Origin: a virus
Length of the DNA stretch: 64,000 nt
Reading direction: 5' to 3' (one strand)
Virus record (IMG/VR): IMGVR_UViG_3300017963_000262
Location: 1-64,000 of that record
The notes beneath the pieces are model-generated. The model made no database searches. It saw only the letters and a list, made by a program, of their open reading frames with translations, and was not told the origin of the DNA. Below are positions 2,647-58,258 of this stretch, in pieces. Made by a program: the position numbers and the translations under genes. Each line of letters begins with the position of its first letter. Within the stretch, counting starts at the first letter, position 1.

Positions 2647-3030
2647 GTGAATATGAAAGTCTATAAAAACGAATTAACAGTATCGGTAGATTGTGACGAT
2701 ACTCTAGTTATGTGGTTAGACAATCCATATCAACCGGGTGAAGGTAAAATTGAAATTCGTGACCATGGCGATAAAGAAATTCCATTAAAATTTTTGTATC
2801 CACATAAAAGACATATAGCATTACTTAAGCGATATAAACAGAGAGGTTTTACTGTCACTGTTTGGAGCAATAATGGTTGGCAATGGGCTGAAGCTGTTGT
2901 TACTGCATTAGGTATAGAAAACTATGTTGATAAGGTTGAATCTAAGCCTATTAAAATTATAGATGATTTGCCTTATGATGAAACTTTTCCTAAAAGATTA
3001 TATTTAGATTATGAGGAAAAAAATGAATAG
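2647..3030 (+). CDS. HAD-superfamily phosphatase/nucleotidase-like
   Basis: 127 aa; N-terminal DxDxT motif (VDCDDTLV) typical of HAD motif I; overlaps next gene by 20 nt (coupled). Confidence 0.45.
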   Translation: MNMKVYKNELTVSVDCDDTLVMWLDNPYQPGEGKIEIRDHGDKEIPLKFLYPHKRHIALLKRYKQRGFTVTVWSNNGWQWAEAVVTALGIENYVDKVESKPIKIIDDLPYDETFPKRLYLDYEEKNE

Positions 3031-3850
3031 AGTAGACCGCCAATATTTAGATATTATTGAAGACATTTTTCTTGATGGTCAGGATATTCAGTCTCGTAAT
3101 GCTCAAACTAGACGTATTGTTAATCCTATAGTTAAATTTGATTCGACTCCGCTAGTATCTATTCGTAGAACGGCTTGGAAACAAGCTCTTAGAGAAATGG
3201 AATGGTTTTTGTCGGGATCTAATTATTTACACGATTTGCACGAATCTGTTATTCATTGGTGGCAACCTTGGGCAGATAATCAAGGTAGAATTAAAAACAA
3301 CTATTCAATACAATTTAGAAATGCAAAAGGTCATGGCGGAGTTCCTTTAGACCAAGTTAATCATCTTATCGGTCAATTAGCTTATCGACCAGAGTCGAGA
3401 AGATCAGTAATAACAACTTGGAACACAAACGACATGGTTTGCCCTTCTACACCAATTACAAATTGTCACGGTACAGTTATTCAATGCTTTGTAAATCCCG
3501 ACGATACAGTTGATATGACAATGTATCAACGAAGTGCAGATTTTATGCTTGGAGTACCACATAATTGGATTCAATATTGGGCTTTTCTTCAATATATAAC
3601 AAAACAATCTAATAAATTACAAGAAGACTTAAATCGAAAAGTAGGAAAATTTACTTGGATTGGTGGAGATACACATATTTACGAACAGCACATGGAAATT
3701 GCTAATAAATGTCGGCATACTGAAATATCTCATATCGAGACACCACAGTTGACATACAATCCTACTTCTGATAAATTTAAAGCTGATGATTTCACGTTGG
3801 TAGGAGAATATAAACCTGTTTTAAACGAAAAATTGGATCTTATTGTATGA
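3011..3850 (+). CDS. thymidylate synthase (ThyA) family enzyme, divergent; possibly a dUMP-specific pyrimidine hydroxymethylase
   Basis: 279 aa; alignable by eye to ThyA: YLDIIEDIF..., EWFLSG, catalytic CH (ITNCHGTVIQCFV ~ PCHAFFQFYV), YQRSADFMLGVPHNWIQY ~ YQRSCDVFLGLPFNIASY; Asn in PHN retained, which suggests uracil specificity; DRTGTGT P-loop replaced by SRNAQTRRI. Confidence 0.6.
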   Translation: MRKKMNRVDRQYLDIIEDIFLDGQDIQSRNAQTRRIVNPIVKFDSTPLVSIRRTAWKQALREMEWFLSGSNYLHDLHESVIHWWQPWADNQGRIKNNYSIQFRNAKGHGGVPLDQVNHLIGQLAYRPESRRSVITTWNTNDMVCPSTPITNCHGTVIQCFVNPDDTVDMTMYQRSADFMLGVPHNWIQYWAFLQYITKQSNKLQEDLNRKVGKFTWIGGDTHIYEQHMEIANKCRHTEISHIETPQLTYNPTSDKFKADDFTLVGEYKPVLNEKLDLIV

Positions 3851-4014
3851 AAAAATTTATTTATCAAAATGTAGTTTTTAAGGGAAAGTGGAAACCTCTT
3901 GAAATATTAGAAATGGAAAAGCTTTATGATAAATTTTTTATTGATTTAATTATGAAATTAGAAATAAACGAAACAATTGAATCTGATTTTAGAATTATAA
4001 AAAGGATTAAATAA

Positions 4015-4803
4015 ATGATTAGTGTTAACGGTGAAAAAATCAACGTAACTAAGTTTAGTGACCAAACAAGTCAAGTGTGGAATGTTTCTGGTATTTCAGG
4101 ACTTACAGCAGTTGTAGTTTGGAATTTTGAGCTTGAAAGTGAATTTCTTCATTTAGCTCAATTGAAGACTTTATTAGATAAAAAAGGGATTCGAGCAACT
4201 TTACACATGCCATATTTACCTTATGCGAGACAGGATAAGCCTGTTAATAACCAAAATACATTTGCTTTAATCACTTTTGCTAAATTAATTAATGATTTAA
4301 AGTTTGAGGCAGTTTTTGCTGTAGATCCTCATAGTGAAGTTCCAAAAGAACTTATCAAGAATTTTACTCCTATTATACCTTTCAATTATATTCGTATAGC
4401 AGAAATCCATACACAATCTGATGTTATGTGTTTTCCTGATAAAGGCGCTATGACTAAATATGGTAAATATTTTAAACCTGAACGCTATGTTTATGGCGAA
4501 AAAGTAAGAAATCAACAAACTGGCAAGTTGGAAGATATGAAACTTGTTGGTGATGTTAAAGATAAAAATGTTTTAATTGTTGATGATATTTGTGATGGTG
4601 GAGGAACTTTTTGCTGGATGGCACAGTTGTTGTACGATGCTGGAGCAAAATCTGTTAATTTATATACAACTCACGGTATTTTTAGTAAGGGACTTAGACC
4701 GTTGAGAGAAGCGAAAATTGAGCGTATATTTACAAAAGATGGTGAAATTAGTGAATATCATAAACATATTGTTTATAAACCTATGGAGAATACAGAACTA
4801 TGA
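4015..4803 (+). CDS. ribose-phosphate pyrophosphokinase (Prs) family protein, short form; candidate ADPR-pyrophosphokinase (Adps-like)
   Basis: 262 aa; Prs signature PYLPYARQDKP (~PYFGYARQDRK) and PRPP/PRTase loop VLIVDDICDGGGT; shorter than canonical ~315-aa Prs. Confidence 0.6.
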   Translation: MISVNGEKINVTKFSDQTSQVWNVSGISGLTAVVVWNFELESEFLHLAQLKTLLDKKGIRATLHMPYLPYARQDKPVNNQNTFALITFAKLINDLKFEAVFAVDPHSEVPKELIKNFTPIIPFNYIRIAEIHTQSDVMCFPDKGAMTKYGKYFKPERYVYGEKVRNQQTGKLEDMKLVGDVKDKNVLIVDDICDGGGTFCWMAQLLYDAGAKSVNLYTTHGIFSKGLRPLREAKIERIFTKDGEISEYHKHIVYKPMENTEL

Positions 4804-5063
4804 AATACAGAAAAAAACCTGTAGTTATTGATGCTTATAAATATGAAGGAGATGGATTGGATGCTCTTTCTTGGTCAGCAGAAGTAAGCCCTGATCCAAA
4901 AACACCACTTATAGTTAAACCCGGAATTGGGTTATTTATAGAAACATTAGAAGGTGAAATGCATGTTTCTGAAGGTGATTTTATAATTAAAGGCATTCAA
5001 GGTGAGTTTTATCCCTGTAAACCAGATATTTTTGAACAAACTTATGAAAAGGTGGAAGAATGA
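4800..5063 (+). CDS. hypothetical protein
   Basis: 87 aa ORF, start overlaps upstream stop (ATGA); good coding periodicity. Confidence 0.4.
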   Translation: MKYRKKPVVIDAYKYEGDGLDALSWSAEVSPDPKTPLIVKPGIGLFIETLEGEMHVSEGDFIIKGIQGEFYPCKPDIFEQTYEKVEE

Positions 5064-5350
5064 AGAGATCAAGAACTGAAGTTTTGTTAAATCAAGTTTT
5101 AAATGAAATACACAATGTTCAATATGAATTAGAAAAAAAAGCCAAAATCGGTAAAGATAAAATTCAATATACAATTGATGGAAGAATGCGAGATGGGGCA
5201 TTTAGATCTGATGACCCAAATGGTTATGTTTCATTAGAATTAACTATGGATGAAGAAAAATATATTCTTGATTTACTTGAAAAACATTACGAAGAATTAG
5301 GTTATAAAATAAAAAATTATAAAACATATTTAGAAATTGAGGTAAAATAA
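5060..5350 (+). CDS. hypothetical protein
   Basis: 96 aa, ATGA overlap with upstream gene, ends 1 nt before the Nampt-like start. Confidence 0.4.
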   Translation: MKRSRTEVLLNQVLNEIHNVQYELEKKAKIGKDKIQYTIDGRMRDGAFRSDDPNGYVSLELTMDEEKYILDLLEKHYEELGYKIKNYKTYLEIEVK

Positions 5351-6933
5351 TGAAAGGTTTAATTCCAACGCTTTTATGCGATTTTTACAAAGTCAGTCAC
5401 CGAGAGCAATATCCTGCGGGGACAGAAGTTGTTTATTCGACTTGGGTTCCTCGTTCAGGAAAACATGCCCCGAATATTAAACACGTTGTTGCTTTTGGGT
5501 TTCAGGGATTTATTAAAGAGTTTATGATTGACTACTTTAATGAAAACTTCTTTGCTCGCAACAAAGATGAAGTATTAGCCGAATATAGTCGATATATGAA
5601 GTTTTGTCTTCAAGTTCAAAATCCTGATACAAGTCACATTGAAGCACTACACGATCTAGGTTATTTGCCATTAAAAATTAAAGCTCTTGATGAAGGTACT
5701 CTTGTTCCGTTTCGTGTTCCAATGCTTACCATTGAAAATACAGATTCTCGTTTCTTTTGGTTAACAAATTATTTTGAAACTCTAATGTCTGCAAATCTTT
5801 GGAAGCCAGCAACATCAGCTTCTATTGCTAAAGAATATCGCGATTTATTAGATAGCTATGCCAAAAAAACTACAGGGTCTACCGACTTTGTTATGTTCCA
5901 AGGTCACGACTTTTCAATGCGAGGCATGTCTGGTCTTGAAGATTCTGCTAGAACTGGTGCAGGACATTTATTATCTTTTGTTGGAACAGATACTATTCCA
6001 GCTATTCAATATCTTGAGCAATATTATAATGCGAATATTGAAAAAGAACTTGTTGGTTGTTCTGTAAATGCAACAGAACATTCGGTGATGTGTGCTGGAG
6101 GAAAAGATGACGAATTTGAAACTTATCGTCGTTTAATTGAAGATACATATCCTACAGGAATTGTTTCTATCGTTTCTGATACTTGGGATTTGTGGCATGT
6201 TCTCACTGATACTATTCCTAAACTTAAAGAAAAGATTCTTGCTAGAGACGGTGGACCAGAGTCGTTAGACAAAGTAGTTATTCGACCTGACTCAGGAGAT
6301 CCTGTTAAGATTCTTTGTGGAGATAACGATGCTCCAATGAATAGTCCAGCAAATAAAGGGGTTATTCAACTTTTGTGGGAAACATTTGGTGGAACAGTAA
6401 ACAAAGAAGGATATAAAGAGCTAAATCCTGCGATTGGAGCTATTTATGGTGATGCTATTACTCTTGATCGTTGCGGACATATTTGTGACAGATTGGAAAC
6501 TCAGGGCTTTGCATCGACTAATGTTGTATTCGGTATTGGCTCTTACACTTATCAAATGAACACTAGAGATACTCTTGGATTTGCAATGAAAGCAACTTCT
6601 GTAGTTATCAATGGTGTCGAGATGCCAATTTTTAAAAATCCAGTAACTGATGATGGTGTAAAAAAATCTAATTTGGGCAGAGTTGCTGTTATTGAAAATA
6701 GTGCAGGAAATTTAGTTTGTGTTGACGATAATAGTCATCAATCTGTAGTAAAAAGTGCACAAAACTGTAATTTATTAACCGATGTATTTGTTGACGGTAA
6801 ATTGGTAAAAGAAACAACTTTACAAGAAGTTAAATCTAAGATGGTATCGGAAGAAGATAGAGTTTCAGGATTTAGCATGAGTTTAAAAGCGGCAAAAATG
6901 GAGTTAGAACATGGTATTGGAACTGAAGGGTGA
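5350..6933 (+). CDS. nicotinamide phosphoribosyltransferase (Nampt/NadV) family; candidate nicotinamide ADPR transferase (Namat-like)
   Basis: 527 aa; N-terminus LLCDFYKVSHREQYP matches the Nampt TDSYK.SH..QYP signature; size typical for Nampt-family enzymes. Confidence 0.65.
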   Translation: MKGLIPTLLCDFYKVSHREQYPAGTEVVYSTWVPRSGKHAPNIKHVVAFGFQGFIKEFMIDYFNENFFARNKDEVLAEYSRYMKFCLQVQNPDTSHIEALHDLGYLPLKIKALDEGTLVPFRVPMLTIENTDSRFFWLTNYFETLMSANLWKPATSASIAKEYRDLLDSYAKKTTGSTDFVMFQGHDFSMRGMSGLEDSARTGAGHLLSFVGTDTIPAIQYLEQYYNANIEKELVGCSVNATEHSVMCAGGKDDEFETYRRLIEDTYPTGIVSIVSDTWDLWHVLTDTIPKLKEKILARDGGPESLDKVVIRPDSGDPVKILCGDNDAPMNSPANKGVIQLLWETFGGTVNKEGYKELNPAIGAIYGDAITLDRCGHICDRLETQGFASTNVVFGIGSYTYQMNTRDTLGFAMKATSVVINGVEMPIFKNPVTDDGVKKSNLGRVAVIENSAGNLVCVDDNSHQSVVKSAQNCNLLTDVFVDGKLVKETTLQEVKSKMVSEEDRVSGFSMSLKAAKMELEHGIGTEG

Positions 6934-7381
6934 TATTAGAGAAACTCCAATTCTTTCAATTGCTCACGGAGTTAATTGTCAAGGTGCTATGGGTTCTGGA
7001 GTTGCCAGAGCCTTATTTCAAAAATGGCCTGAAGTAAGAACTGAGTATCTAAAGTTTTACGCTGAAGCAAAGGAAGAAGGCGCAAAACCTGAAGATTTTT
7101 TAGGATGCACAAATAAAGTTGTAACCGATAGAAAATACATATATAATATGTTCACACAACTAGAGTTTGGTCCAGCAGATAAGCAATATGTTGATTATTC
7201 TGCCATTTTAAAATGTTTTGATGATTTACGCTATGAGATGCCTAGAGCAATTGCTGTGCCAAAGATTGGTGCAGGATTAGCTGGTGGGGATTGGAAAGTA
7301 ATTAGAGATATATTAGTCAAAACTACTCAAAAATTAGGCATTGATCTGGTAATTTACAGCTTGACAGATGATAAAAAATAA
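6911..7381 (+). CDS. macro-domain protein (ADP-ribose binding/processing)
   Basis: 156 aa; IAHGVNCQGAMGSGVARAL resembles the macro-domain N..N....GGGV..A motif; overlaps the Nampt-like gene by 23 nt. Confidence 0.5.
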   Translation: MVLELKGDIRETPILSIAHGVNCQGAMGSGVARALFQKWPEVRTEYLKFYAEAKEEGAKPEDFLGCTNKVVTDRKYIYNMFTQLEFGPADKQYVDYSAILKCFDDLRYEMPRAIAVPKIGAGLAGGDWKVIRDILVKTTQKLGIDLVIYSLTDDKK

Positions 7382-7409
7382 TATACATTAATATTTAAAA
7401 GGAGATTAT

Positions 7410-8276
7410 ATGAAAGTTCTATTACTTATTTCGTTTCTATTTATGACAGCTTGTTCAATTGTTGGTCCGGGAGAAAGAGGTGTACGTCTTAAAATGGGTG
7501 AAGCTCAGGATTACGTTTTAGAGCCGGGAGCACATTTTTGGATTCCAGTATTTCGTGGAGTCGCTAAAGTTGATGTTCAAATTCAAAAAAATGAAGTAGT
7601 TACACCATCAGCATCAAAAGACATGCAAGAAATTGAAACAAATCTAGCAGTCAATTGGCATATTGAAGCCGATCAAGTTGTTAAACTTTATAAAAGTGTT
7701 GGGCATGAATATTATATCCTTAATCGACTAATCGTTCCTGCGGTAAATGAAGTTTTAAAAGCCACTAGTGCAAAATTAACTGCAGAAGAGATTTTGACTA
7801 AACGTGTCGAAATGAAAGATGATATTGACAGTAGCCTTCGCAATAGACTTCTAAAATATGGAATTATTATTGACGAAATTAATATTGTTGATTTAACTTT
7901 TAGTAAAGAATTTACTCATGCTATTGAGCAAAAACAGATTGCTGAACAGGAGGCAAAGCAAGCTTACTATTTAGCACAAAAAGTTGCTAAAGATGCTGAG
8001 GGTAAGGCTGTTGCGCAAGTTACTATGGCAAAAGCCGATGCAGAACAAAGAGTTATTGATGCTGGGGCCAAGGCTAAGTCAGAGGTTCTTGCAGCAAAAG
8101 CTGATGCTGAAGCAAAATTATTAAGAGCTAACGCTGAAGCAAAAGCTAACTTAACTGTAGCAAAATCTTTAACGCCAGCACTAATTAAGTATGAAAAAAT
8201 TAAAAACTGGAATGGTCAATTGCCTAAAGTAACAGGCGGTGCAGGAACTCTAATTTCAATTGATGGTGATAAATAA
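7410..8276 (+). CDS. SPFH/band-7 (prohibitin/HflC-like) lipoprotein
   Basis: 288 aa; lipobox LFMTAC; SPFH-like core followed by A/E/K-rich coiled coil; SD GGAGA 8 nt upstream. Confidence 0.5.
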   Translation: MKVLLLISFLFMTACSIVGPGERGVRLKMGEAQDYVLEPGAHFWIPVFRGVAKVDVQIQKNEVVTPSASKDMQEIETNLAVNWHIEADQVVKLYKSVGHEYYILNRLIVPAVNEVLKATSAKLTAEEILTKRVEMKDDIDSSLRNRLLKYGIIIDEINIVDLTFSKEFTHAIEQKQIAEQEAKQAYYLAQKVAKDAEGKAVAQVTMAKADAEQRVIDAGAKAKSEVLAAKADAEAKLLRANAEAKANLTVAKSLTPALIKYEKIKNWNGQLPKVTGGAGTLISIDGDK

Positions 8277-8713
8277 TGAAACTAAAAATTAAAAAAGTTC
8301 ACGAAAAAGCTAAACTGCCCAAGTATGAAAGTGCTGGGGCAGCATGTTTTGATTTAACTGCAGCAACTAAAGAATTTAAAGCTCACAAAATGGGACCAAT
8401 GTTTGAGTACGATACCGGATTGGCTTTTGAGATTCCTGAAGGTCATGTTGGACTAATTTTTCCTAGATCGAGCATTACCTCTAAAACAACTTTATCTTTA
8501 GGAAATTGTGTAGGTGTTATTGATAGTGATTATCGAGGTACAGTTAAATTCCAATTTAGAAGAACTAATCCTGCTTTTCATCAAGATTATCAAGTTGGTG
8601 AGAGAATTGGCCAAATGATGATCTTGCCTGTAGAGCAAGTAGAAATTGAAGAAGTAGAAACTTTGTCAGAAACCGAACGTGGAACTGGCGGATTTGGTAG
8701 TACCGGGGCTTAA
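8276..8713 (+). CDS. dut: dUTP diphosphatase
   Basis: 145 aa; all five dUTPase motifs visible: SAGAACFDL, PRSS, GVIDSDYRG, GERIGQMMI, RGTGGFGSTG. Confidence 0.8.
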   Translation: MKLKIKKVHEKAKLPKYESAGAACFDLTAATKEFKAHKMGPMFEYDTGLAFEIPEGHVGLIFPRSSITSKTTLSLGNCVGVIDSDYRGTVKFQFRRTNPAFHQDYQVGERIGQMMILPVEQVEIEEVETLSETERGTGGFGSTGA

Positions 8714-8931
8714 TGGAAGAACTTGATCCACATGAGCTTTATCATCATAAATTTAATTGGGAAAAAGCTTATAAATACGCTAGAGAAATGGAGGATGGAG
8801 ACATCTTTCCTCCTATTATTGTTAAAAGAGGATTTAAAGGTCACTTAAAAGTCCATGATGGAGCACATAGAACTGCTGCACACAAGCTACTTGGAAGAAA
8901 AAAAATAAAAGCATTTGTTCAGGATGTATAA
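8713..8931 (+). CDS. small ParB/Srx-fold-like protein
   Basis: 72 aa; VHDGAHRTAAHKLLG resembles the ParB N-terminal DG.HR motif. Confidence 0.35.
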   Translation: MEELDPHELYHHKFNWEKAYKYAREMEDGDIFPPIIVKRGFKGHLKVHDGAHRTAAHKLLGRKKIKAFVQDV

Positions 8932-9225
8932 ATGTCTAAAACTAAAAACAAGAGTCGCTCAGAGCTGGAACATGTTCGGGGACAATTGAAAGCTGTTCGT
9001 CGAGAAAATCGACAATTGAGAAAACGTTTAAAAGAGCTAGAAAGACAAGCTCATTTTTATGAGGAAACAATAGATGATGTTGCCGAAGACATAGATCTAG
9101 ATACTTGCCCAAAGTGCCAAAAAGGTCAAACTGTCGTTATAGATTTAAAACATCTAATACTCGTAAGTTGCAATCAGTGTGAATACAAGGAAAGGTTAAA
9201 GCCTGATGGGAAAAAAATTAAATAG
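8932..9225 (+). CDS. hypothetical zinc-ribbon protein
   Basis: 97 aa; CPKCQ...CNQC Cys4 pattern; basic coiled-coil N-terminus. Confidence 0.35.
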   Translation: MSKTKNKSRSELEHVRGQLKAVRRENRQLRKRLKELERQAHFYEETIDDVAEDIDLDTCPKCQKGQTVVIDLKHLILVSCNQCEYKERLKPDGKKIK

Positions 9226-9598
9226 AAAGAGTTGGGTTGTTCAAAGATTGAGACGACTCTCCATGAAGTGGCCACCCAGAAATGCAGTAAAAAAAGCAAA
9301 TAGACGAGAATATTATAAAACTCGCAAAGATGGGTCTAAGTATGCTAAACCCAATTTTGAATATCAATGTAATATGTGTAAAAACTGGTTTGCAGACAAA
9401 GATACTTGCATGGACCATATTATTCCTGTAGTTGACCCTAAAGATTCTGAACAGTATTGTGAACAGGATTTTATTGGTATGTTTGTCATGGGCCTACTAT
9501 CTTACGAAGATAACTGGCAAATTTTGTGTCATTCGTGTCACGATATTAAAACTGAAAAAGAGAATAAAATTAGACAAAAAACTAAGAAAAAAAGTTGA
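9206..9598 (+). CDS. HNH endonuclease
   Basis: 130 aa; CNMC...DHIIP...N...CHSCH HNH/Zn pattern. Confidence 0.55.
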   Translation: MGKKLNRKSWVVQRLRRLSMKWPPRNAVKKANRREYYKTRKDGSKYAKPNFEYQCNMCKNWFADKDTCMDHIIPVVDPKDSEQYCEQDFIGMFVMGLLSYEDNWQILCHSCHDIKTEKENKIRQKTKKKS

Positions 9599-32455: not shown

Positions 32456-32897
32456 AACGCTGATTATGTTAGTTCTAATTACTCTAATGTGGGCTGATAT
32501 TGGACGATCTGAAGTTCAATTTAAGACAGATAGAATAGAACAAGAATTTGAACAACTGTACTCTAAAAATCTTGAGTTATATCAGATAGTTATCTTTGCA
32601 AATTATAAACTCACCGAAATATCTAAAAAAAATTTAGTAATTACAGAGATTTATAGAACACAAGCTGAACAAGACAAATATTACAAGGGAAAGAAAAAGT
32701 TTAAATCTCCACACCAACGATGGTTAGCTGTAGACATTAGAACTAGGCATTTATCAAAAAAAGAAGTTAAACTGCTGGTTAAAGCCATAAATAAGCGATA
32801 TAATTCGATAAATAGATATAATCCTTCAGCATTTTATCATAGCATTGGTCGAGGACATCATATTCACATCCAATTCAAGGATAGAAATGAAAACTAA
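32439..32897 (+). CDS. peptidase M15 (VanY/L-Ala-D-Glu peptidase-like) endolysin with N-terminal signal or SAR segment
   Basis: 152 aa; HQRWLAVDI (H..D) and HHIHIQ (HxH) zinc-binding motifs; hydrophobic N-terminus LIMLVLITLMWA. Confidence 0.5.
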   Translation: MMRNLKTLIMLVLITLMWADIGRSEVQFKTDRIEQEFEQLYSKNLELYQIVIFANYKLTEISKKNLVITEIYRTQAEQDKYYKGKKKFKSPHQRWLAVDIRTRHLSKKEVKLLVKAINKRYNSINRYNPSAFYHSIGRGHHIHIQFKDRNEN

Positions 32898-33408
32898 GAT
32901 TATTAATTATTTTGGAGGTCCCGGAGTTGGCAAAAGTACCGATAGTGCGGCTCTATATGTTGAAATGAAACGTGCAGGATATGATGTTGAGTTGGTTAGA
33001 GAAGTTGCTAAAAAGTATGCACATAAGGGTCAGAATATAGGGGCTTTCGATCAAATAGCTATTATTGGTCAACAAATCGAAGAAGAAAGTAGTCTTATTG
33101 GAAATGTTGAATATGTAATAACTGATGGACCATCATTTCTTTGCGCAATATATCTTTATACAAATCACGATAAATATTTTATGATGGATTCAGTTAAAAA
33201 ATATTATGAATATTGTCAACAAAAGGGTGTTATATTTAAGAACTTTGTTATACCTAGAACTAAAGAGTACAATCCTAAAGGACGATTTGAAGATGAATTT
33301 ACTGCAAATTTTATAGACAGTCTTGTTAGGGTTCAGTTGACAAAATACGATATTCCTTATACAGTAAAGAATCCGACGATTAAGGACGTTATTTATGAAA
33401 AGAAGTGA
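32845..33408 (+). CDS. P-loop NTPase/kinase-like protein
   Basis: 187 aa; Walker A GGPGVGKST; possible DxP Walker B-like VITDGP. Confidence 0.45.
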   Translation: MVEDIIFTSNSRIEMKTKIINYFGGPGVGKSTDSAALYVEMKRAGYDVELVREVAKKYAHKGQNIGAFDQIAIIGQQIEEESSLIGNVEYVITDGPSFLCAIYLYTNHDKYFMMDSVKKYYEYCQQKGVIFKNFVIPRTKEYNPKGRFEDEFTANFIDSLVRVQLTKYDIPYTVKNPTIKDVIYEKK

Positions 33409-50845: not shown

Positions 50846-51293
50846 TGATTTTAAAGCTACCATGATATTTTTATTAGGAATGATTATTAGCGGATGTGGA
50901 TCACTTCACAAAGCTGATGGTATATACAACCTAGATCCTGACTTCGGAGCATACACTAACGCATATCAGGAGTATAAAGAACGTTATTTGGGAACAAGAG
51001 ACGTTGAATATGCCATTGACGTTGAGTATGGACATTTAGAGGAACCAACAATAGGCCGATGTCGTCAACCTGACGTTCCTTTCTTAAAAAGAACAATAAC
51101 TGTTGATTATACATATTGGAATGATGCTGATGATGAATTAAAACTACGATTAATGTTTCACGAACTAGGTCATTGTGATTTAAACTGCGACCATCAAGAT
51201 GAAGAACAAGGAATAATGAACGAATCTATGGGACATTACTCACCAAGAATGAGTGATAAAGAAATTGAAGCCATGTTTTTGGAGTGCAAATAA
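50832..51293 (+). CDS. zinc-metallopeptidase-like lipoprotein
   Basis: 153 aa; lipobox LGMIISGC; HELGHCDLNCDH (HExxH-type). Confidence 0.45.
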   Translation: MIMNNDFKATMIFLLGMIISGCGSLHKADGIYNLDPDFGAYTNAYQEYKERYLGTRDVEYAIDVEYGHLEEPTIGRCRQPDVPFLKRTITVDYTYWNDADDELKLRLMFHELGHCDLNCDHQDEEQGIMNESMGHYSPRMSDKEIEAMFLECK

Positions 51294-52225
51294 TGTTTAA
51301 AAGATATAACTCAATTGAAAACCATTATCGTCAAAAGTATATTTTAAATTCACTATCACAACAACCTGAATTAGAAAACTGCAAATATTCTATTAGAGAA
51401 AAAGTAGATGGGGCAAACGTTCAATTCTTTTTTCAAAAAGGGAAAAAGATGGAGGTCGGAAAGCGTTCTTCCTTTCTAAAAGAAGAAGATTCTTTTTATG
51501 ATATTTGGTCGGTTGTTGCTAGAAATGATTCAATCCTACAACGTTTTCAAGATTTTGTTGATGCAGGGGATTTCAAGCTTAGGGTTTATGGTGAACTTTT
51601 TGGACCAGCTATACAAAATCGAGTAGACTATGGTCCTATAAAAAATATTTTATTTTTTGATATTGAACTTGATGGTCAGATGGTTTCTCAACAAAAATTT
51701 GAAGAGATTATGAAATTACTTAATCTTGAGGACGAAATGGTTCCCTTAGTTGGATACGCAGACAGTTTAACTGAGGCTTTAAATTTTAGTTGCGATTTTG
51801 ATAGTAAGGTAATTGCTAAAGAAAACAACCCTGCCGAAGGAATTGTCATCAAGCCTTATGAAAAAGAATATACAATGGGTAATGGATCTCGTTTTCTTTT
51901 AAAGAAAAAATCTGAAAAATTTAAAGAGAAAGAAAGTAAAGGGAAAGCACCAAAAGTAGAAGAAAATTTACCCCAAGAAGTCGTTTCATTAATGCTTGAA
52001 TTTCGGGGCTATGTTAATAAGAATAGAGTTCTTAGTGTTTTCTCTAAACATGGCGAAATTGAAAGTCCAAAAGAGATTGGCAAATATATACAATTAGTAA
52101 TGGATGACGCTAAAGAAGATTTTTTAAAAGACAATGAACTTCCTGAAGGATTAGAAAAAAAGGTTGAAAAGAAAATATTTAATGTTGGTGGACATATTGT
52201 AAATCTGTTGAAGGAGCATTTATGA
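51284..52225 (+). CDS. ATP-dependent polynucleotide ligase (RNA ligase-like)
   Basis: 313 aa; motif I KVDGANV (KxDG), motif IV EGIVIKP, motif V K-rich LLKKKSEKFK. Confidence 0.55.
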   Translation: MQIMFKRYNSIENHYRQKYILNSLSQQPELENCKYSIREKVDGANVQFFFQKGKKMEVGKRSSFLKEEDSFYDIWSVVARNDSILQRFQDFVDAGDFKLRVYGELFGPAIQNRVDYGPIKNILFFDIELDGQMVSQQKFEEIMKLLNLEDEMVPLVGYADSLTEALNFSCDFDSKVIAKENNPAEGIVIKPYEKEYTMGNGSRFLLKKKSEKFKEKESKGKAPKVEENLPQEVVSLMLEFRGYVNKNRVLSVFSKHGEIESPKEIGKYIQLVMDDAKEDFLKDNELPEGLEKKVEKKIFNVGGHIVNLLKEHL

Positions 52226-52635
52226 ACTTAAAAAGTCGATTGGATCATATTGCACATTTACTTGGATCAACTCGTCGTTATGGTAAAACTACATTAGCAG
52301 CTAGAGCTTGTAAAGAACTTGATGGAGTTTATCTTTGCGCTAATTATGCTCAAGCCAAATTAGTTAATCGAGAACATGGAGTCCATACTCAGTCAATTGA
52401 GAAGAATTTAAGTGGTTTTAGAGGCCCATTCTTTATTGACCACTTTGCTGTAGAAAATTTACTATGTCGAGCTGCACAAAAATTAGACAATAGTGACAAA
52501 AAAATTGACGAATTAAATACAACTGTTTCAAATAAAGATTATGAAATAGAATCTTTACAAAACCGCATTCTTGAGTTACTCTATGATAAAGAAAGATTAG
52601 AGCAAGAACTGCGGAGAATAAAAGATGGATTATGA
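52222..52635 (+). CDS. hypothetical protein
   Basis: 137 aa; C-terminal coiled coil. Confidence 0.35.
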   Translation: MNLKSRLDHIAHLLGSTRRYGKTTLAARACKELDGVYLCANYAQAKLVNREHGVHTQSIEKNLSGFRGPFFIDHFAVENLLCRAAQKLDNSDKKIDELNTTVSNKDYEIESLQNRILELLYDKERLEQELRRIKDGL

Positions 52636-53065
52636 AAAAGAATTAATTTTAATGGTAGGACCGATTGGTTCAGGCAAGACTACTTTTGCGAAATCTCTGG
52701 TGAACGATAGTGCTATTCGTATCTCTCAGGATGAAATGGGTAGAAAAGCCTACTTAAATCATTTTAAAGAAGCTCTCAAAGATGGCATCCCTAGAATAAT
52801 CATCGACAGAATGAATTTTGATCGTAAACAGCGAGAGCGTTTTATTAAACCAGCTAGAGAAGCTGGATATTGTGTAACAATTATGGAAATGGACTACAAT
52901 CCTCTAACTTGCTTAAAAAGAGTTATTGATCGTAAAAATCATCCCACTATTCAACAAGGGTCTGCACAGTTGGCTAAAGATATTATTCTTCGATTTATGA
53001 AAGACTACGAACATCCTGAAAACGATGAGTACGATAACTATAATCTTATTCCTTTGGAGGAATAA
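52625..53065 (+). CDS. P-loop polynucleotide-kinase-like protein
   Basis: 146 aa; Walker A GPIGSGKTT; IIIDRMNFDRKQRERF resembles the Pnk D..R / R-rich lid. Confidence 0.5.
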   Translation: MDYEKELILMVGPIGSGKTTFAKSLVNDSAIRISQDEMGRKAYLNHFKEALKDGIPRIIIDRMNFDRKQRERFIKPAREAGYCVTIMEMDYNPLTCLKRVIDRKNHPTIQQGSAQLAKDIILRFMKDYEHPENDEYDNYNLIPLEE

Positions 53066-53301
53066 TGGAAGAATACTTAAAGATTAGTGATGATATTAAA
53101 TATCAAAATGGAAAATTTTATTATAACAAAAAAGAATATCATTGGGGATCGGGGTATAAAGACCAAGATCGATGGTTATTAATTACCCCATTTACTAAAA
53201 TTGAATATGGATACTATGAAGAAGAGTGGACAGAAACTTTATGTATCGATGAAAACACTGGTGAAAAATTTTGGATTGAAAGGTTGGGAAACATTAAGTA
53301 A
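53065..53301 (+). CDS. hypothetical protein
   Basis: 78 aa. Confidence 0.35.
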   Translation: MEEYLKISDDIKYQNGKFYYNKKEYHWGSGYKDQDRWLLITPFTKIEYGYYEEEWTETLCIDENTGEKFWIERLGNIK

Positions 53302-53346
53302 GTATAAAACAGGTGTCGTTAGGCGTTTAGTTGATAAGGGTATTAA

Positions 53347-53922
53347 ATGGATTTAGTTGGTGGACAATTTAACTATTTAACCGTAAAAAGTTATAGTCAT
53401 TCTCGACGAGATAGATACTGGAATTGTTTGTGTGATTGTGGTAACCAGTGTTTAGCAACAACTAATCAATTAACGTCTGGTAATAAAAAAAGCTGCGGCT
53501 GTTTAAGAAAAAAGACGACAGCCCAATTATTTAAAAAAAGAAAACCATCAGATCCTGCAACAAAAAATGATAGTAGTATAAATAAACTTTATTATCGTTA
53601 TAAAAAAGACGCTAAAAAACGAAATTATCAGTTTAATTTGTCCAGAGATGAATTTAAACAATTAATTGTTGAAAATTGCTTTTATTGTGGAACCAAACCC
53701 AACTCAATATTAAATGAAAAAGATTTAAGGGGTCAAATTAAGTATAATGGAATAGATCGAATTAATAATGATAATGACTATAATTTAGACAATGTAGTTC
53801 CTTGTTGTAAAAGATGTAATGCAGCTAAATCAAATATGACTTTAAAAGAATTTTTAGATATTATTGACAATATTCAAAAAAATATGTTAAAATTAAGAAA
53901 CATACAAAGGATAGTAAATTAA
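53347..53922 (+). CDS. HNH homing-endonuclease-like protein
   Basis: 191 aa; Cys clusters (CLCDCGNQC, CGC) and C-terminal CCKRCNAAK HNH/zinc motif. Confidence 0.5.
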   Translation: MDLVGGQFNYLTVKSYSHSRRDRYWNCLCDCGNQCLATTNQLTSGNKKSCGCLRKKTTAQLFKKRKPSDPATKNDSSINKLYYRYKKDAKKRNYQFNLSRDEFKQLIVENCFYCGTKPNSILNEKDLRGQIKYNGIDRINNDNDYNLDNVVPCCKRCNAAKSNMTLKEFLDIIDNIQKNMLKLRNIQRIVN

Positions 53923-55649
53923 TGGCTAGACTTTTTACCAGTGACACCCACTTTCGTCATCGTAATGTTATTAAATACTGTAATCGTCCTTGGGATAATA
54001 CTGCAGAGATGGATGAGGCTATAATTGAGCAATGGAACTCTCAGGTTGGACCAGATGATGAAGTATATCATCTTGGTGACGTTGGTATTGGTAAAGGAAT
54101 GGCCTTAAAAGAAGATCTTATCAAGCGTTTAAATGGTAAAAAGCATTTAGTTCTAGGAAATCACGATGCAATGTTTAATACGTTACATAAAAATCCTGAT
54201 TGCGTAGAAACTCATGCTAAAGTTGCGAATAAATACTTGAAGGCAGGATGGTGTAGTGTCGATATTATCAAATATTTGATGTTAAAAGACGGTACTCACG
54301 TTGTAATGACGCATCTACCTCCTGATAATGGGATTGATAATCGTTATTCGCAATATAAAGTGAAAAATAATCCTAATTTTAACTATCTTCATGGTCATTT
54401 ACACGCTCATTATCTTAAAAAGAACAACATGCATGATATGGCATTTGATGGCAATCTTCGTTTATACACTGAGGATGAAGTTATTGCTATAATTAAAGAT
54501 GAAAGAGACTTTATTCCTAGCAGAATTACTGAATATTACAATAAAACTGAAGCAATTATGTTAAAACCGTTTGAAGAAGAGCGAAAAAAGGGCAACATTC
54601 GTCGTCAAGATAATTTTAACGGTGATTTGTGCTTATATAACTATACCGATCAGTGTACTTTTGATAGAGCATGGAATGATGTCACTAGAAATTCTAGAGG
54701 AATCGTTTTTGAAGTTGCTACAGGTAAGATTATTGCTTTACCTTTTCCTAAATTCTTTAATCTAGGAGAAATGCCGGAAACCAGATTAGAAAATCTCCCA
54801 GACGAGGAGTACGTTGTCACTGAAAAAATGGATGGATCTTTGGGCATTCTCTATTATTATAAAGATAAGTGGCGCATGAATACCAGAGGCTCGTTTGATA
54901 GTGAACAAGCAATTAAAGGACTTGAAATTTTCAACAAGCAATATGATTCTCATTTCTTTAACCAAGATTATACATATTTAGTAGAGATAATATATCCTGA
55001 AAACAAAATTGTTGTAGATTATGGAAAAGAAGAAAAGCTGGTACTTTTAGCGATTGTGGATACTAATAATCAAAAAGAGGTGGTTGTTCCTGATATGGCT
55101 TGGCTTCCTGAAGTTACCGCTGGCGGTATGCCTTATCGAAATGAATATAAATATACTATTGACGAAATGATTGAGTTACAGCAAACTTTACCAAAAGATG
55201 ATGAAGGCTTTGTTGTTCGTTTCAATAATGGATTACGAGTAAAAATAAAAGGAAAAGAGTATCTTCGAGTTCATAAACTAATTTCTCACATGACACCATT
55301 AGCATTTTGGGAATCTATGGAAGGTGGTAAAGTTAAAATAGATTACTTACAAGAACTTCCTGAAGAGTACAGAAAAGATGCTGAAGAACTTAGTGAAATT
55401 TTACAAGTGTCTTATAGAACTGTTGAAGTCTATGCTCTAGATTCAGTTGATCGAGTTATTAGGCAAGTTGGATTTGGCGATATTAATACTCAAGAATACA
55501 GAAAGAAGATTGGGCTTTATTTAAAAAATAATAAGGTTCCTCATCAAGGATTTATTTTTCCATATCTTTATGGTAAAAAAGAATCTTGTGAAAGATATAT
55601 TATGAACCAAATTAGACCAAAAGGAAATGTTATAGATGCCATACGTTGA
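53922..55649 (+). CDS. metallophosphoesterase-polynucleotide ligase fusion (RNA end-healing and sealing enzyme)
   Basis: 575 aa; N-terminal calcineurin-like motifs SDTHF, GDVG, LGNHD; C-terminal ligase motifs I KMDGSL, IV EGFVVRF, V KIKGKEY. Confidence 0.6.
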   Translation: MARLFTSDTHFRHRNVIKYCNRPWDNTAEMDEAIIEQWNSQVGPDDEVYHLGDVGIGKGMALKEDLIKRLNGKKHLVLGNHDAMFNTLHKNPDCVETHAKVANKYLKAGWCSVDIIKYLMLKDGTHVVMTHLPPDNGIDNRYSQYKVKNNPNFNYLHGHLHAHYLKKNNMHDMAFDGNLRLYTEDEVIAIIKDERDFIPSRITEYYNKTEAIMLKPFEEERKKGNIRRQDNFNGDLCLYNYTDQCTFDRAWNDVTRNSRGIVFEVATGKIIALPFPKFFNLGEMPETRLENLPDEEYVVTEKMDGSLGILYYYKDKWRMNTRGSFDSEQAIKGLEIFNKQYDSHFFNQDYTYLVEIIYPENKIVVDYGKEEKLVLLAIVDTNNQKEVVVPDMAWLPEVTAGGMPYRNEYKYTIDEMIELQQTLPKDDEGFVVRFNNGLRVKIKGKEYLRVHKLISHMTPLAFWESMEGGKVKIDYLQELPEEYRKDAEELSEILQVSYRTVEVYALDSVDRVIRQVGFGDINTQEYRKKIGLYLKNNKVPHQGFIFPYLYGKKESCERYIMNQIRPKGNVIDAIR

Positions 55650-55911
55650 CGATAATAAAAGAAAAGATATTTTTCTTAGTAAAGAAGATGGTAATGCGTT
55701 TGATGCAATTGTTCTTGAATCAATTGATTGTGCTGGAGATTTACAATATGCAATGGCGATTATGTTTAAAGAATATATTGAAAGAAACGGCTTGAATTAT
55801 CAACATTGCAATGATATAATGGGAGCATTAGCTGGGGCACAAATAGAATTTTATAGACGTACAGTAGCTCCTTATGAGGATCAGAAGATTGAAGAAAACG
55901 GTGATATTTGA
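55636..55911 (+). CDS. hypothetical protein
   Basis: 91 aa. Confidence 0.35.
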   Translation: MPYVDDNKRKDIFLSKEDGNAFDAIVLESIDCAGDLQYAMAIMFKEYIERNGLNYQHCNDIMGALAGAQIEFYRRTVAPYEDQKIEENGDI

Positions 55912-56036
55912 ATGTGACGAATTACCTGATGAGATAGAGGTTGTTTTTCATAAAAGCAGATTAAAATCTCTCCAAGGTGGAGTTTATACTCAGTATGTAA
56001 AACATGTTGTTTTTACCAAAGAAAGGGAATATGTAA

Positions 56037-56183
56037 ATGAGCACAAGCAGAGCAAAACAAATTGCACAAAAAAGAAAGACAAAAACTAAAAAATCAGGAA
56101 ATGGTGCCAAGACTAATTACGCAAAACGTAAACGAATGAAAAAAGGTTCAACGAAGCACTTTACTGGTGGGAAAAAACGATAA
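56037..56183 (+). CDS. small highly basic protein (candidate, below ORF-track cutoff)
   Basis: 48 aa MSTSRAKQIAQKRKTKTKK...; alternative to overlapping ORF 55874-56089. Confidence 0.25.
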   Translation: MSTSRAKQIAQKRKTKTKKSGNGAKTNYAKRKRMKKGSTKHFTGGKKR

Positions 56184-56216
56184 TGGAAGACTTTCCTTGT
56201 CCTGAGTGGGAAGATT

Positions 56217-56471
56217 ATGAAGAAATTAATAACTAAAGAAAGACTGTGTACTTTAGCAACAATAGCTTACCACTGTTTGTTTTTAAGTGGTGCCAGTTTT
56301 TATGTTGCTGAATTTCAAAAAACCAGAGATACTATCGTTAAACAAGTTGATCGCGTTGAGAAAAAAGCTGATGAATTAAAGAAAACTGGAGAAAGTATAA
56401 ATAGCTCAATTAAATCTGTTGAATCAAAGTTAGATAAAGTTAAACGAACCTGTGAAAAGTTGAGATTTTAA
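56217..56471 (+). CDS. hypothetical membrane/coiled-coil protein
   Basis: 84 aa. Confidence 0.35.
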   Translation: MKKLITKERLCTLATIAYHCLFLSGASFYVAEFQKTRDTIVKQVDRVEKKADELKKTGESINSSIKSVESKLDKVKRTCEKLRF

Positions 56472-56686
56472 TGTTAGATAAAAAGCGCATTATGGAAGTT
56501 ATGGTGGCTTATGGAAAGCAAGTCGGCTACCCTGATAAGATTGGACCAAAACAATTTATACAGGGACATCTAAATAACTGTTTCAAAGTCTTGATGATGA
56601 AGAAACTTGTAAAACCAGAGCACTATAACTCATATCGCGCAGCGGCAATTGAAGAATATAAAAAATGGTGGATGAATAACCGATGA
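56471..56686 (+). CDS. hypothetical protein
   Basis: 71 aa. Confidence 0.35.
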   Translation: MLDKKRIMEVMVAYGKQVGYPDKIGPKQFIQGHLNNCFKVLMMKKLVKPEHYNSYRAAAIEEYKKWWMNNR

Positions 56687-56979
56687 AGCAGGGCGACAAA
56701 GTACATCTCAAAGGTCGAGAAGAGGTTACTGGAGTTATTGAAAAAACTAAATTTGACCACATGTGGGGAATTAATTACACACAACACTATGTTAAATACG
56801 ATAAAGATGACTTAATTCCTCCAGCCGATTGGCACGAAGAAGATGATTTGGTATTAATTGAACCTTTACCTAAAGGTAATAATACTTATAAACATCCTGT
56901 TTGTGAATGTGGAGTAAGTAAAGTAATGCATAATGGTAGGCATAGTGATTATTGTCCGTTATATAAGGAGTATAAATAA
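56683..56979 (+). CDS. hypothetical Cys/His protein
   Basis: 98 aa; CECG...HNGRHSDYC. Confidence 0.35.
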   Translation: MKQGDKVHLKGREEVTGVIEKTKFDHMWGINYTQHYVKYDKDDLIPPADWHEEDDLVLIEPLPKGNNTYKHPVCECGVSKVMHNGRHSDYCPLYKEYK

Positions 56980-57230
56980 TGGGTGAATTAAAATTATATG
57001 AAGAGCCAGCCGGAACCAACGAAGTTATAATTGATGAGCCTGAGTTTGGTGATGGTGACGATGGTGGAGAAGGCGAAGGATTGGATGCAATTAACATTCA
57101 ATTTGTAACTAATGGTGTCATTGTAACATTCTCTCTACTTGAAGGTGAAGAGCACAAAGAAGTTTATTATACACTAGATGAAGCTTTACAAAGAATCAGT
57201 CAAAGCGTAGGAGCATATTGTGAAGAGTAG
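56979..57230 (+). CDS. small acidic protein
   Basis: 83 aa; GDGDDGGEGEG. Confidence 0.35.
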   Translation: MGELKLYEEPAGTNEVIIDEPEFGDGDDGGEGEGLDAINIQFVTNGVIVTFSLLEGEEHKEVYYTLDEALQRISQSVGAYCEE

Positions 57231-57504
57231 AAAATTGTATCCTAAAAATATAACAAAGTCTTTTCGTAAGTTTTCTGGAGAATTATCTATTCAAGTTGAT
57301 GGTAAAAGATGGATTGATGTTAAACCTTCAGAAAAAGCTGGTCCACAAGTTATTGATGAATTTATTAAAGCGAGAAATACTGATAGACTGGAGTACGTTG
57401 AGATTAATGAAAATCAAGAAATTGTTGATTTAAAAATTGATAAATACAAAAATGCAGATAAATCTGTGGTTGATAAAGTTAGAAAGATATATAGACATGG
57501 CTAA
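57220..57504 (+). CDS. hypothetical protein
   Basis: 94 aa. Confidence 0.35.
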   Translation: MKSRKLYPKNITKSFRKFSGELSIQVDGKRWIDVKPSEKAGPQVIDEFIKARNTDRLEYVEINENQEIVDLKIDKYKNADKSVVDKVRKIYRHG

Positions 57505-58258
57505 GATTGCATTAACATCAGATCTACATTACGGCTGTACCGGAAATTCTGCAAATAAAATACAGAAAATGTTTAATCGTTTGAATAATCAGGATTTTGA
57601 TGTTTTAATCTTAGCTGGGGACCTAGCCTCACATACACAATATCACTACAAAAGATGTTTAGAAACAGCGCGTCAGTGCATACCAGACAAGCCTATTCTG
57701 ACAGTTCGAGGCAACCATGATTTGTGGGATGGTTTACACAAAAAAGATAAAAAGTCACAGAGACGAATGTTATATCAAATATATGAAGAACATGAGCAAT
57801 TATACCGAGACAATAACATACAACATCTAGATACGCCATTTAAGCTCGATGATGTTACTATTTTTGGATTTGATGGATGGTATCATAAACCGGACCCCAA
57901 AACTAACGACAGTCATTGGATGCCTCTTATGCACGAAAGTTGTCGCACGTTAACATATTTATCAAATAATAGTTTTAAAGATTTTGATAGAGTTTTAGAT
58001 CAATACGATAAACAAAAAAATGATATTAATGTTTTAGTTAGTCACTTCCCATCAATTGCAATAAAAAATGATAGACATGAATTTAATGCGTCACCGCGTT
58101 TTCTTCCAGAAATAAAAGAACGGTTTGATGTTGTTTGTTATGGACATTCGCATAAATTTATGAATATAACCGAAGATGGTACACGTTTTTGTAACTCTGG
58201 TTCTGACTATGGTAAACCTTCAGCAATGATTATTAATACTAAATTGTCCTCTGTCTGA
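57437..58258 (+). CDS. calcineurin-like metallophosphoesterase
   Basis: 273 aa; SDLHYG (DxH), ILAGDLA (GDxxD), RGNHD motifs. Confidence 0.5.
   Translation: MINTKMQINLWLIKLERYIDMAKIALTSDLHYGCTGNSANKIQKMFNRLNNQDFDVLILAGDLASHTQYHYKRCLETARQCIPDKPILTVRGNHDLWDGLHKKDKKSQRRMLYQIYEEHEQLYRDNNIQHLDTPFKLDDVTIFGFDGWYHKPDPKTNDSHWMPLMHESCRTLTYLSNNSFKDFDRVLDQYDKQKNDINVLVSHFPSIAIKNDRHEFNASPRFLPEIKERFDVVCYGHSHKFMNITEDGTRFCNSGSDYGKPSAMIINTKLSSV

Follow-up and report, generated by a model that had tools for sequence, protein, structure and literature searches.

Pairs of Prs-like and Nampt-like proteins encoded by phages were described by Osterman et al. as an ADP-ribose (ADPR) pyrophosphate synthetase (Adps) and a nicotinamide ADP-ribose transferase (Namat); the two together constitute NAD+ reconstitution pathway 1 (NARP1; bioRxiv 10.1101/2024.02.11.579819). 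In this pathway, Adps uses ATP to convert ADPR into ADPR pyrophosphate (ADPR-PP), and Namat joins ADPR-PP with nicotinamide to give NAD+, ADPR pyrophosphorylation without phosphoribosyl pyrophosphate (PRPP) synthetase action being demonstrated for the Adps of SPbetaL1 only. According to the same work, NARP1 is present in 4.3% of phages and overcomes the SIR2-HerA, Thoeris I, DSR1, DSR2, and SEFIR defenses, whereas NARP2, composed of Nampt and Nmnat, is its PRPP-dependent alternative, and no phage was found to carry both. Adps was defined there by a Namat homolog at most 10 genes away, and 97% of the members of the Adps clade adjoin Namat. Here, a five-gene locus at positions 4015 to 7381 of a 64,000-nt stretch of viral DNA (IMG/VR record IMGVR_UViG_3300017963_000262, positions 1 to 64,000; hereafter the window, within which all positions and strands are counted) is compared with these systems, and it is very probably an operon of NARP1 with its associated phosphatase (NARP1-AP).

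The extended pathway was reported by Osterman et al. in January 2026 (bioRxiv 10.64898/2026.01.28.702374). In that study, the RES-domain defense aRES yields ADPR-1''-phosphate, which is unusable by NARP1, and a macro-domain phosphatase (Adpp), encoded in 15% of NARP1 operons, converts it to ADPR. The experiments were performed with the operon carried by Vibrio phage Gary and included the Adpp mutant H24A, and the working definition of NARP1-AP was a macro protein of family PF01661, PF14519, or PF20016 at most two genes from a NARP1 operon; the order adps-x-namat-macro is among those in Table S1 of the study, Acinetobacter phage phiAbaA1 being one example. A further extension is RyDEP, a RyR-domain protein inserted in a NARP1 operon, which turns cyclic ADPR (cADPR) signals into ADPR (bioRxiv 10.64898/2026.05.28.727677). 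Also, crystal structures of the SPbetaL1 Namat (PDB codes: 9W5X and 9W5W) revealed an adenine "selectivity clamp" made of a variable loop, SCL, and a motif, SCH, of the form GS-X-phi-X-phi-X-phi-TRD (2026 NAR paper, PMC12774641). In this clamp, the third residue of SCL is Arg, Lys, or Tyr, and where it is one of the latter two, the residue that follows stacks on adenine; the activity of the single mutant Y396K fell by only about 1.3-1.7-fold. The characterized Namat still forms nicotinamide mononucleotide (NMN) from PRPP in vitro (bioRxiv 10.1101/2024.02.11.579819; PMC12774641).

The locus comprises five overlapping open reading frames (ORFs), all on the plus strand and with zero intergenic space. 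The first, adps (4015..4803, +), encodes a 262-aa Prs-family protein assigned as an ADPR-pyrophosphate synthetase homolog from its domains, profiles, and position in a tree. It is followed by orf87 (4800..5063, +; a PGDYG-like small phage protein of 87 aa), orf96 (5060..5350, +; a near-orphan small protein of 96 aa with no Pfam, PHROG, or NCBIfam match), namat (5350..6933, +; a 527-aa nicotinamide ADP-ribose transferase homolog of the Nampt family), and an adpp-like macro-domain gene (6911..7381, +; 156 aa). A preliminary description of this DNA had pointed to a Prs-like, Nampt-like, and macro-domain trio with two coupled small ORFs, and all these ORFs and the motifs quoted for them are present: the Prs-like protein contains MPYLPYARQDKPV and NVLIVDDICDGGGTF, and the Nampt-like protein contains LLCDFYKVSHREQYP. 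The spacing between adps and namat, given there as about 550 bp, is 546 nt and is exactly occupied by orf87 and orf96. Successive genes overlap by 4, 4, 1, and 23 nt, the last being the overlap of the macro gene with the end of namat that had also been described; the macro domain is not fused in, as was then stated, but has an ORF of its own, which is read in a different frame and overlaps the stop region of namat. A Shine-Dalgarno-like motif lies 6-11 nt upstream of every start codon in the block (AGGTGG for orf96), and the five genes are translationally coupled. The assignment of the locus draws on homology, diagnostic motifs, conservation of essential residues, and conserved synteny.

The Prs-like protein matches Pfam Pribosyltran (4e-10) and Pribosyl_synth (1e-7) and phrog_619 (2e-66). 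However, it is far under all NCBIfam Prs equivalog cut-offs. Its score with the Prs model TIGR01251 is 109.4 bits, under the curated cut-off of 113 and in line with the Adps of SPbetaL1 (106), Gary (99.9), and FADO (96.5), whereas Escherichia coli Prs reaches 422.7 bits. An Adps profile built from 55 Namat-adjacent homologs, with the window protein left out, gives the opposite ranking, being 232.9 bits for the window protein (inside the training range of 201-361 bits) and 123 for E. coli Prs. The comparison of profiles proposed in the preliminary description thus places this protein with Adps. In a neighbor-joining tree, it groups with the homologs of two IMG/VR loci (L013 and L008) in a Namat-linked clade near the SPbetaL1/FADO group, and its identity in the alignment is 32% to the SPbetaL1 and 36-37% to the Gary enzyme, against 23% to E. 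coli Prs. Its K163, invariant in the alignment, corresponds to the mutated catalytic Lys of SPbetaL1 (K162) and Gary (K192), and its DPHSEV segment fits the Adps pattern (E/D)PHSDV rather than the DLHAEQIQGFF of E. coli Prs. Its length had been taken as a peculiar truncation of Prs; in fact, 262 aa is close to the Adps compared here (272-293 aa for the reference enzymes and about 248-301 aa for homologs from metagenomic loci). Moreover, the Namat homolog is the third gene downstream of adps, inside the published 10-gene limit, and, among 56 IMG/VR loci with a gene related to the window namat, 54 have an adjacent Adps homolog, in both gene orders. These results support the identification of the 262-aa protein as Adps rather than a housekeeping Prs, and ADPR pyrophosphorylation is its predicted activity. 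A literature search for a published Adps structure, or for the catalytic residues of Poa1p, gave nothing usable.

The Nampt-like protein matches Pfam NAPRTase (1e-42) and NAMPT_N (3e-7) and phrog_448 (5e-199), and its best solved structures are those of the SPbetaL1 Namat (PDB codes: 9W5X and 9W5W; E 6e-202), followed at a distance by human Nampt (4e-63). Identity by tblastn is 61% to the SPbetaL1 and 59% to the FADO Namat. On the other hand, direct alignment gives only 29% to NadV of Aeromonas phage 25 and to the Nampt of CcrKarma, whose gene adjoins a cytidylyltransferase gene, and identity to the Nampt of KVP40 is 31%; in a listing spread over 2045 phage matches, the T4-like and Caulobacter phage Nampts belong to a lower group, with identities of 28-32% and scores of 160-190 bits. 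The catalytic residues that contact NAD+ are all kept, namely D11, Y13, Phe and Arg of HDFSMRG, Asp of GTD, His of TEH, Arg and Asp of IRPDSGD, and GDA. As for the clamp, the SCH motif is GSYTYQMNTRD (Namat residues 396-406, window positions 6535-6567), with the published length and frame, Tyr at position 3, and TRD present, but with Met at position 7. In the SCL loop, PRSGKHAP, K38 aligns with R40 of SPbetaL1 and is followed by H39, a Lys-His configuration described for other Namats (PMC12774641). This supports that the 527-aa protein is a Namat and not a NARP2 Nampt, with a predicted preference for ADPR-PP. The two assignments agree with the preliminary description, which had favored Adps plus Namat over PRPP-dependent salvage. 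As a separate observation, the window Namat also matches two structures deposited as "nicotinamide phosphoribosyltransferase" (PDB codes: 9KE8/9KEO) at E 4e-159, far better than cellular Nampts, and these are probably another phage Namat or Nampt.

The 156-aa protein belongs to Pfam Macro PF01661 (7e-7; 29.6 bits against a cut-off of 22) and to phrog_335, annotated "phosphatase" (1e-34). Its gene lies directly downstream of namat, overlapping it, and so falls within the two-gene distance by which NARP1-AP was defined. Full-length homology to the tested Adpp of Gary (KNV71_gp137) is detected at 24% identity (E 5e-10), and identity is 31% to gp177 of River4 (E 3e-14) and 25-32% to nine macro proteins from Table S1 (bioRxiv 10.64898/2026.01.28.702374). 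In an alignment of 29 sequences that includes Gary Adpp, the residues N22, M27, G30, A32, Q83, P117, G125, and W128 are invariant, and H19, conserved in at least 90% of the sequences, aligns with H24 of Gary, the residue mutated in the Adpp study. NARP1 operons of several lineages have gained macro genes independently of each other, with differing gene orders. These data support an Adpp-like protein, for which conversion of ADPR-1''-phosphate to ADPR is predicted. The suggestion that the macro protein may feed ADPR into the pathway therefore matches the published role of Adpp, although the protein is not the less expected partner it had been called, since this extension was already published (bioRxiv 10.64898/2026.01.28.702374).

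Residues whose mutation reportedly kills NARP1 or NARP1-AP are all kept in the three proteins (K163 in Adps, His of TEH and Arg of IRPDSGD in Namat, and H19 in the macro protein). Then, the locus would act as follows. Host effectors of the SIR2, TIR, or SEFIR type would split NAD+ into ADPR and nicotinamide, the 262-aa Adps would use ATP to turn ADPR into ADPR-PP, and the 527-aa Namat would swap the pyrophosphate for nicotinamide, giving NAD+ directly, with no need for an NMN adenylyltransferase. Moreover, where RES-type effectors (aRES) phosphorolyse NAD+ to ADPR-1''-phosphate, which Adps could not use, the 156-aa Adpp-like protein would remove the 1''-phosphate and feed the resulting ADPR into the Adps step.

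Several observations weigh against this reading. The three activities and the anti-defense phenotype were shown for homologs at 24-61% identity (bioRxiv 10.1101/2024.02.11.579819; 10.64898/2026.01.28.702374; PMC12774641), from which we infer those of the window proteins by homology. The Adps tree was rooted on E. coli Prs, being this the single Prs outgroup, and the window corresponds to about 64 kb out of the roughly 71 kb of its contig, from a genome that may be larger, so an NMN adenylyltransferase could lie elsewhere. In the clamp, position 7 of SCH is Met where SPbetaL1 has the adenine-contacting Tyr396 and where about 55 other Namat homologs examined outside the lineage have Tyr or Phe, rarely His; moreover, Met is found here in the NARP2 Nampt of Aeromonas phage 25 as well. 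The Met is kept in two related metagenomic phages (L069 and L070) and is therefore not a sequencing error. Given that Y396K lost only about 1.3-1.7-fold, at most a modest effect would be expected of it. Finally, the macro protein is just 24-32% identical to any NARP1-associated macro protein and is closer by profile to BT1257, SCO6735, and DarG than to Poa1p (PDB profile search: BT1257/2afc, 3e-30; SCO6735, 5e3b, 3e-24; DarG, 5m3i/5m31, 2e-22; TARG1, 7e-17; Poa1p, 8e-17). For these two reasons, the substrate of the macro protein is the weakest inference, as the fold class alone does not fix it.

In this context, the macro protein could have a function other than, or additional to, that of an ADPR-1''-phosphate phosphatase: it could remove ADP-ribose from protein, DNA, or RNA and so oppose DarT, CmdT, or other ADP-ribosyltransferase toxins, or it could deacetylate O-acetyl-ADPR, either independently of NARP1 or as a source of ADPR. 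Part of this had been raised in the preliminary description, as a counter to ADP-ribosylating toxins. The order of its structural neighbors would agree with it, SCO6735 being presumably a protein-glutamate de-ADP-ribosylase and 5m3i and 5m31 being, as we take them, DarG macrodomains. When the protein alone is used to query the PDB, 5m3i is the best match (2e-10), its PDB title being "RNase III inhibitor", and the best NCBIfam match is also DarG (NF048014). Furthermore, members of this macro family are present in 2534 phage records, of which many seem to lack NARP1 (for example, tk.4 of T4-like phages), and macrodomains are often promiscuous. However, the DarG model is reached at 45.6 bits against a cut-off of 250, with 156 aa set against 338 model positions, and the window protein stands alone, lacking the DarG C-terminal domain and a DarT partner. 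Also, the position of DarG K80 (in PTKKHW) and of the catalytic Lys of TARG1 is occupied by the invariant Gln83, as in Gary Adpp, which argues against a DarG- or TARG1-type mechanism. The overlap of the macro gene with the namat stop in four related phages, together with the independent entries of macro genes into NARP1 operons noted above, also counts against this alternative. The toxin-directed role is thus weakened and, with the other activities, is kept as an unlikely alternative to an Adpp-like phosphatase.

The two small ORFs between adps and namat were compared with known families and folds. The orf87 family is very large, with more than 8000 homologs, one of them annotated PF14083, and matches phrog_419 (2e-32). 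Its AlphaFold2 (AF2) model has a pLDDT of 87.8; compared with the PDB, the model gives no significant fold match, and the SPO1 Tad2 protein was rejected as a fold neighbor (E about 1, TM 0.33). In the BFVD, the model matches a "PGDYG protein" or uncharacterized viral proteins. One BFVD match is A0A5B8WIM2 of Arthrobacter phage Qui, a 182-aa "nicotinate ribosyltransferase" (E 1e-4, TM 0.71), which hints at a PGDYG-like domain in or beside an actinophage NARP1 locus. A homolog of orf87 occupies the same slot in L069 and L070, with 38-43% identity, and the one in L070 (4102-4446, 114 aa) has an insertion of about 28 residues with a CxxC...H.H segment, CKHCSITMHNHGW, which may be a zinc-binding insert. 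The nearest homologs elsewhere are in unrelated contexts, outside NARP1 loci, and among the 56 IMG/VR NARP1 loci an orf87-type gene is present in just two (L017 and L018), both of one other lineage.

For orf96, a word-indexed search returned orf96 alone, and an exhaustive HMMER search of 1.8 billion representative proteins found three distant homologs at 34-44% identity. One of them lies between thymidylate synthase and dUTPase in a contig (L074) where the NARP1 genes are absent, and therefore orf96 is not NARP1-dependent. Its single-sequence AF2 model (pLDDT 71) has a generic alpha/beta fold, and the fold matches of this low-confidence model, topped by de novo designs, were rejected as uninformative. 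Two candidates for a known accessory function were also rejected. RyDEP was discarded because orf87, orf96, and orf55 have no RyR match (PF02026); moreover, orf96 has no tryptophan and hence no equivalent of W78, which binds the ligand in RyDEP and was the only one compared of its ligand residues (the others being H75, H100, and D117). In the case of aRad1, the six-frame translation of the window contains no match to a profile made from six members of this family. Both small proteins are most likely unrelated passengers with no NARP1-specific link. On the other hand, three divergent phages of the lineage keep orf87 in the slot between adps and namat, and it evolves faster than the enzymes. It might be an undescribed NARP1 accessory factor, for example one that binds or converts another ADPR-derived defense product, like Adpp and RyDEP, or, instead, the clamp Met might reflect a shifted donor specificity; such departures from the described pathway would be a long shot.

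The possibility of classical PRPP-dependent salvage was also considered. In this case, the Prs-like protein would make PRPP, the Nampt-like protein would make NMN, and an NMN adenylyltransferase of the host or of an unseen part of the phage genome would finish the route, as in a complete or partial NARP2. The names of the Pfam, PHROG, and NCBIfam models, which are those of Prs and Nampt/NAPRTase, would fit this scheme, and so would the NMN formation retained by the characterized Namat, the Met shared with one NARP2 Nampt, and the incomplete coverage of the genome by the window. However, the Prs-like protein is under every curated Prs cut-off and scores like Adps, and the Nampt-like protein has a Namat-type clamp and an identity of 61% with the SPbetaL1 Namat but only 29-31% with NARP2 Nampts. 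The absence of an NMN adenylyltransferase from the window, asserted in the preliminary description, holds in all the searches made: the motif GxFxPxHxGH is in no frame of the 64 kb, the KVP40 Nmnat gives a best E of 4 by tblastn, and about 55 larger ORFs scanned against Pfam or PHROGs show no cytidylyltransferase or Nudix match. Consequently, the Nmnat from the same phage by which NARP2 is recognized is not found within 64 kb. Considering also that no phage is reported with both pathways and that 97% of the Adps clade adjoins Namat (bioRxiv 10.1101/2024.02.11.579819), PRPP-dependent salvage is very improbable here. In the same search, a 187-aa P-loop protein (32845-33408, +) matched Pfam AAA_28 at 29.8 bits. 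This family presumably includes the ribosylnicotinamide kinase domain of NadR, and a NadR-type kinase was rejected for the window protein because the PDB gave no match to it and its PHROG match, to "thymidylate kinase", is weak.

The gene order of the locus was compared with that of related metagenomic phages (L068, L069, and L070), reached through homologs of the macro protein. Identity to their proteins is 62-74% for Adps, 80-82% for Namat, and 59-61% for the macro protein. In L069 and L070, the order is thymidylate synthase, adps, small ORF(s), namat, macro, and dUTPase, and L068, truncated inside namat, shows the end of namat, the macro gene, and dUTPase; in all three, as in the window, the start of the macro gene overlaps the namat stop. 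By contrast, L074, a 2.5-kb contig (ERR10503270), contains a HAD-like gene, thymidylate synthase, a 78-aa ORF, the orf96 homolog, a 64-aa ORF, and dUTPase, with adps, namat, and macro absent between thymidylate synthase (64% identical to that of the window) and dUTPase (78%). Flanks of this kind without NARP1 genes suggest that NARP1-AP behaves as a cassette, a unit that is present or absent between conserved neighbors among related phages. An incidental adjacency of three auxiliary metabolic genes with no pathway coupling, for which the surrounding ribonucleotide reductase, thymidylate synthase, dUTPase, and possible HAD-like phosphatase genes and the lack of enrichment of promoter- or terminator-like sites over shuffled sequence could be invoked, is scarcely credible when Adps and Namat are neighbors in 54 of 56 related loci in both orders, the namat-macro overlap is conserved, and the module is present or absent as a unit between thymidylate synthase and dUTPase.

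Regarding the genomic setting, the locus sits among nucleotide-metabolism genes, in a long and tight co-directional block (about 2647-9598) where genes for thymidylate synthase, an SPFH lipoprotein, and dUTPase are also found and which a ribonucleotide reductase gene precedes. The scan for promoter- and terminator-like sites against shuffled sequence showed no enrichment and leaves the operon boundaries undefined. Compared at the nucleotide level with 50,697 deposited phage genomes, the locus gave only a chance-level match of 48 nt and no close relative. Upstream of thymidylate synthase, a 127-aa ORF (2647-3030, +) has a DxDxT-like motif (VDCDDTLV) and, itself, no significant family match; the ORFs that hold this position in L069 and L070 give faint HAD/NIF matches in Pfam, and the 127-aa product may belong among the small HAD-type phosphatases or nucleotidases. 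Directly downstream of the macro gene (7410-8276, +) lies an SPFH/Band-7 protein of phrog_200 with a lipoprotein-type signal, MKVLLLISFLFMTAC. Homologs of it are located about 0.7 kb past adps in a clade of about 10 IMG/VR NARP1 loci (L019, L020, L023, L024, L027, L031, L033, L043, L050, and L062) and about 5 kb from NARP1 in L037, and the gene is absent in the closest relatives (L068-L070); this recurrence may be lineage synteny or a functional link.

Far from the locus, the window carries a set of RNA-repair genes (51284-58258, +). Two of them encode RNA ligases, one of the Rnl2 type (51284-52225, +) and one of the Rnl1 type that is fused to a phosphoesterase (53922-55649, +); the others encode a P-loop protein resembling polynucleotide kinase (52625-53065, +) and a metallophosphoesterase (57437-58258, +). 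This set probably counters anticodon-nuclease defenses. River4 and Gary, which are Thalassavirus phages, also have genes for an RNA ligase and a phosphoesterase, located near their NARP1-AP.

Altogether, earlier work has already described the pathway with its chemistry and what the macro protein does in it, and the window is a further case of NARP1-AP and not a new system. It extends the range of NARP1-AP carriers to an uncultivated phage lineage of low GC content, to which no deposited phage genome is closely related at the nucleotide level. Nothing in it is unusual except the Met of the clamp and the PGDYG-like insert, which is conserved; of these, the change of Tyr to Met at position 7 of SCH is a natural clamp variant that could be used for testing the published clamp model.

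Among the known systems, the window macro protein shares the ALC1-like subclass with BT1257, SCO6735, DarG, TARG1, and yeast Poa1p (profile E 3e-30 to 8e-17), and differs from DarG and TARG1 in the Gln that replaces the catalytic Lys, in being a stand-alone 156-aa domain, and in its NARP1 genomic context. The RyDEP-extended NARP1 of mycobacteriophage DyoEdafos is a precedent for a small "feeder" gene between adps and namat, RyDEP converting 2'/3'cADPR to ADPR (bioRxiv 10.64898/2026.05.28.727677); however, orf87 and orf96 have neither a PF02026 match nor a NARP1-specific distribution. The NARP2 Nampt of KVP40 (with its Nmnat) and cellular Nampt have in common with the window Namat the NAPRTase/Nampt fold and the catalytic core. 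Nonetheless, NARP2 Nampts have GGGLLQ(M/Q)xxRD (GGGLLQMVNRD, GGGLLQQLDRD) where Namats have GS[YF]TYQxxTRD, their SCL loop is shorter, and the window differs from NARP2 in its 29-31% identity, in the presence of Adps, and in that no Nmnat was found.

With the NARP1 of Bacillus phage SPbetaL1 (also in Bas63 and FADO; bioRxiv 10.1101/2024.02.11.579819; PMC12774641), the window Namat shares the NAD+-contacting residues and the clamp architecture, with Met in place of SCH Tyr396 and Lys-His in place of SCL Arg40. The SPbetaL1 operon consists of two abutting genes only and lacks the macro gene that the window has, and in FADO a macro homolog is located about 25 kb from NARP1. The closest counterpart is the NARP1-AP of Vibrio phage Gary (Adps - Adpp - Namat; bioRxiv 10.64898/2026.01.28.702374). 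The order of the genes differs, being adps-adpp-namat in Gary and adps-orf87-orf96-namat-macro in the window; moreover, the window macro sequence is very divergent, its Namat is nearer to those of Bacillus phages, and it has Met at SCH position 7. However, both loci encode the same three families in a single operon, with identities of 36-37% for Adps, 41-46% for Namat, and 24% for the macro protein, and the Gary residues mutated in that study (K192 of Adps, H243 of Namat, and H24 of Adpp) are all kept in the window proteins.

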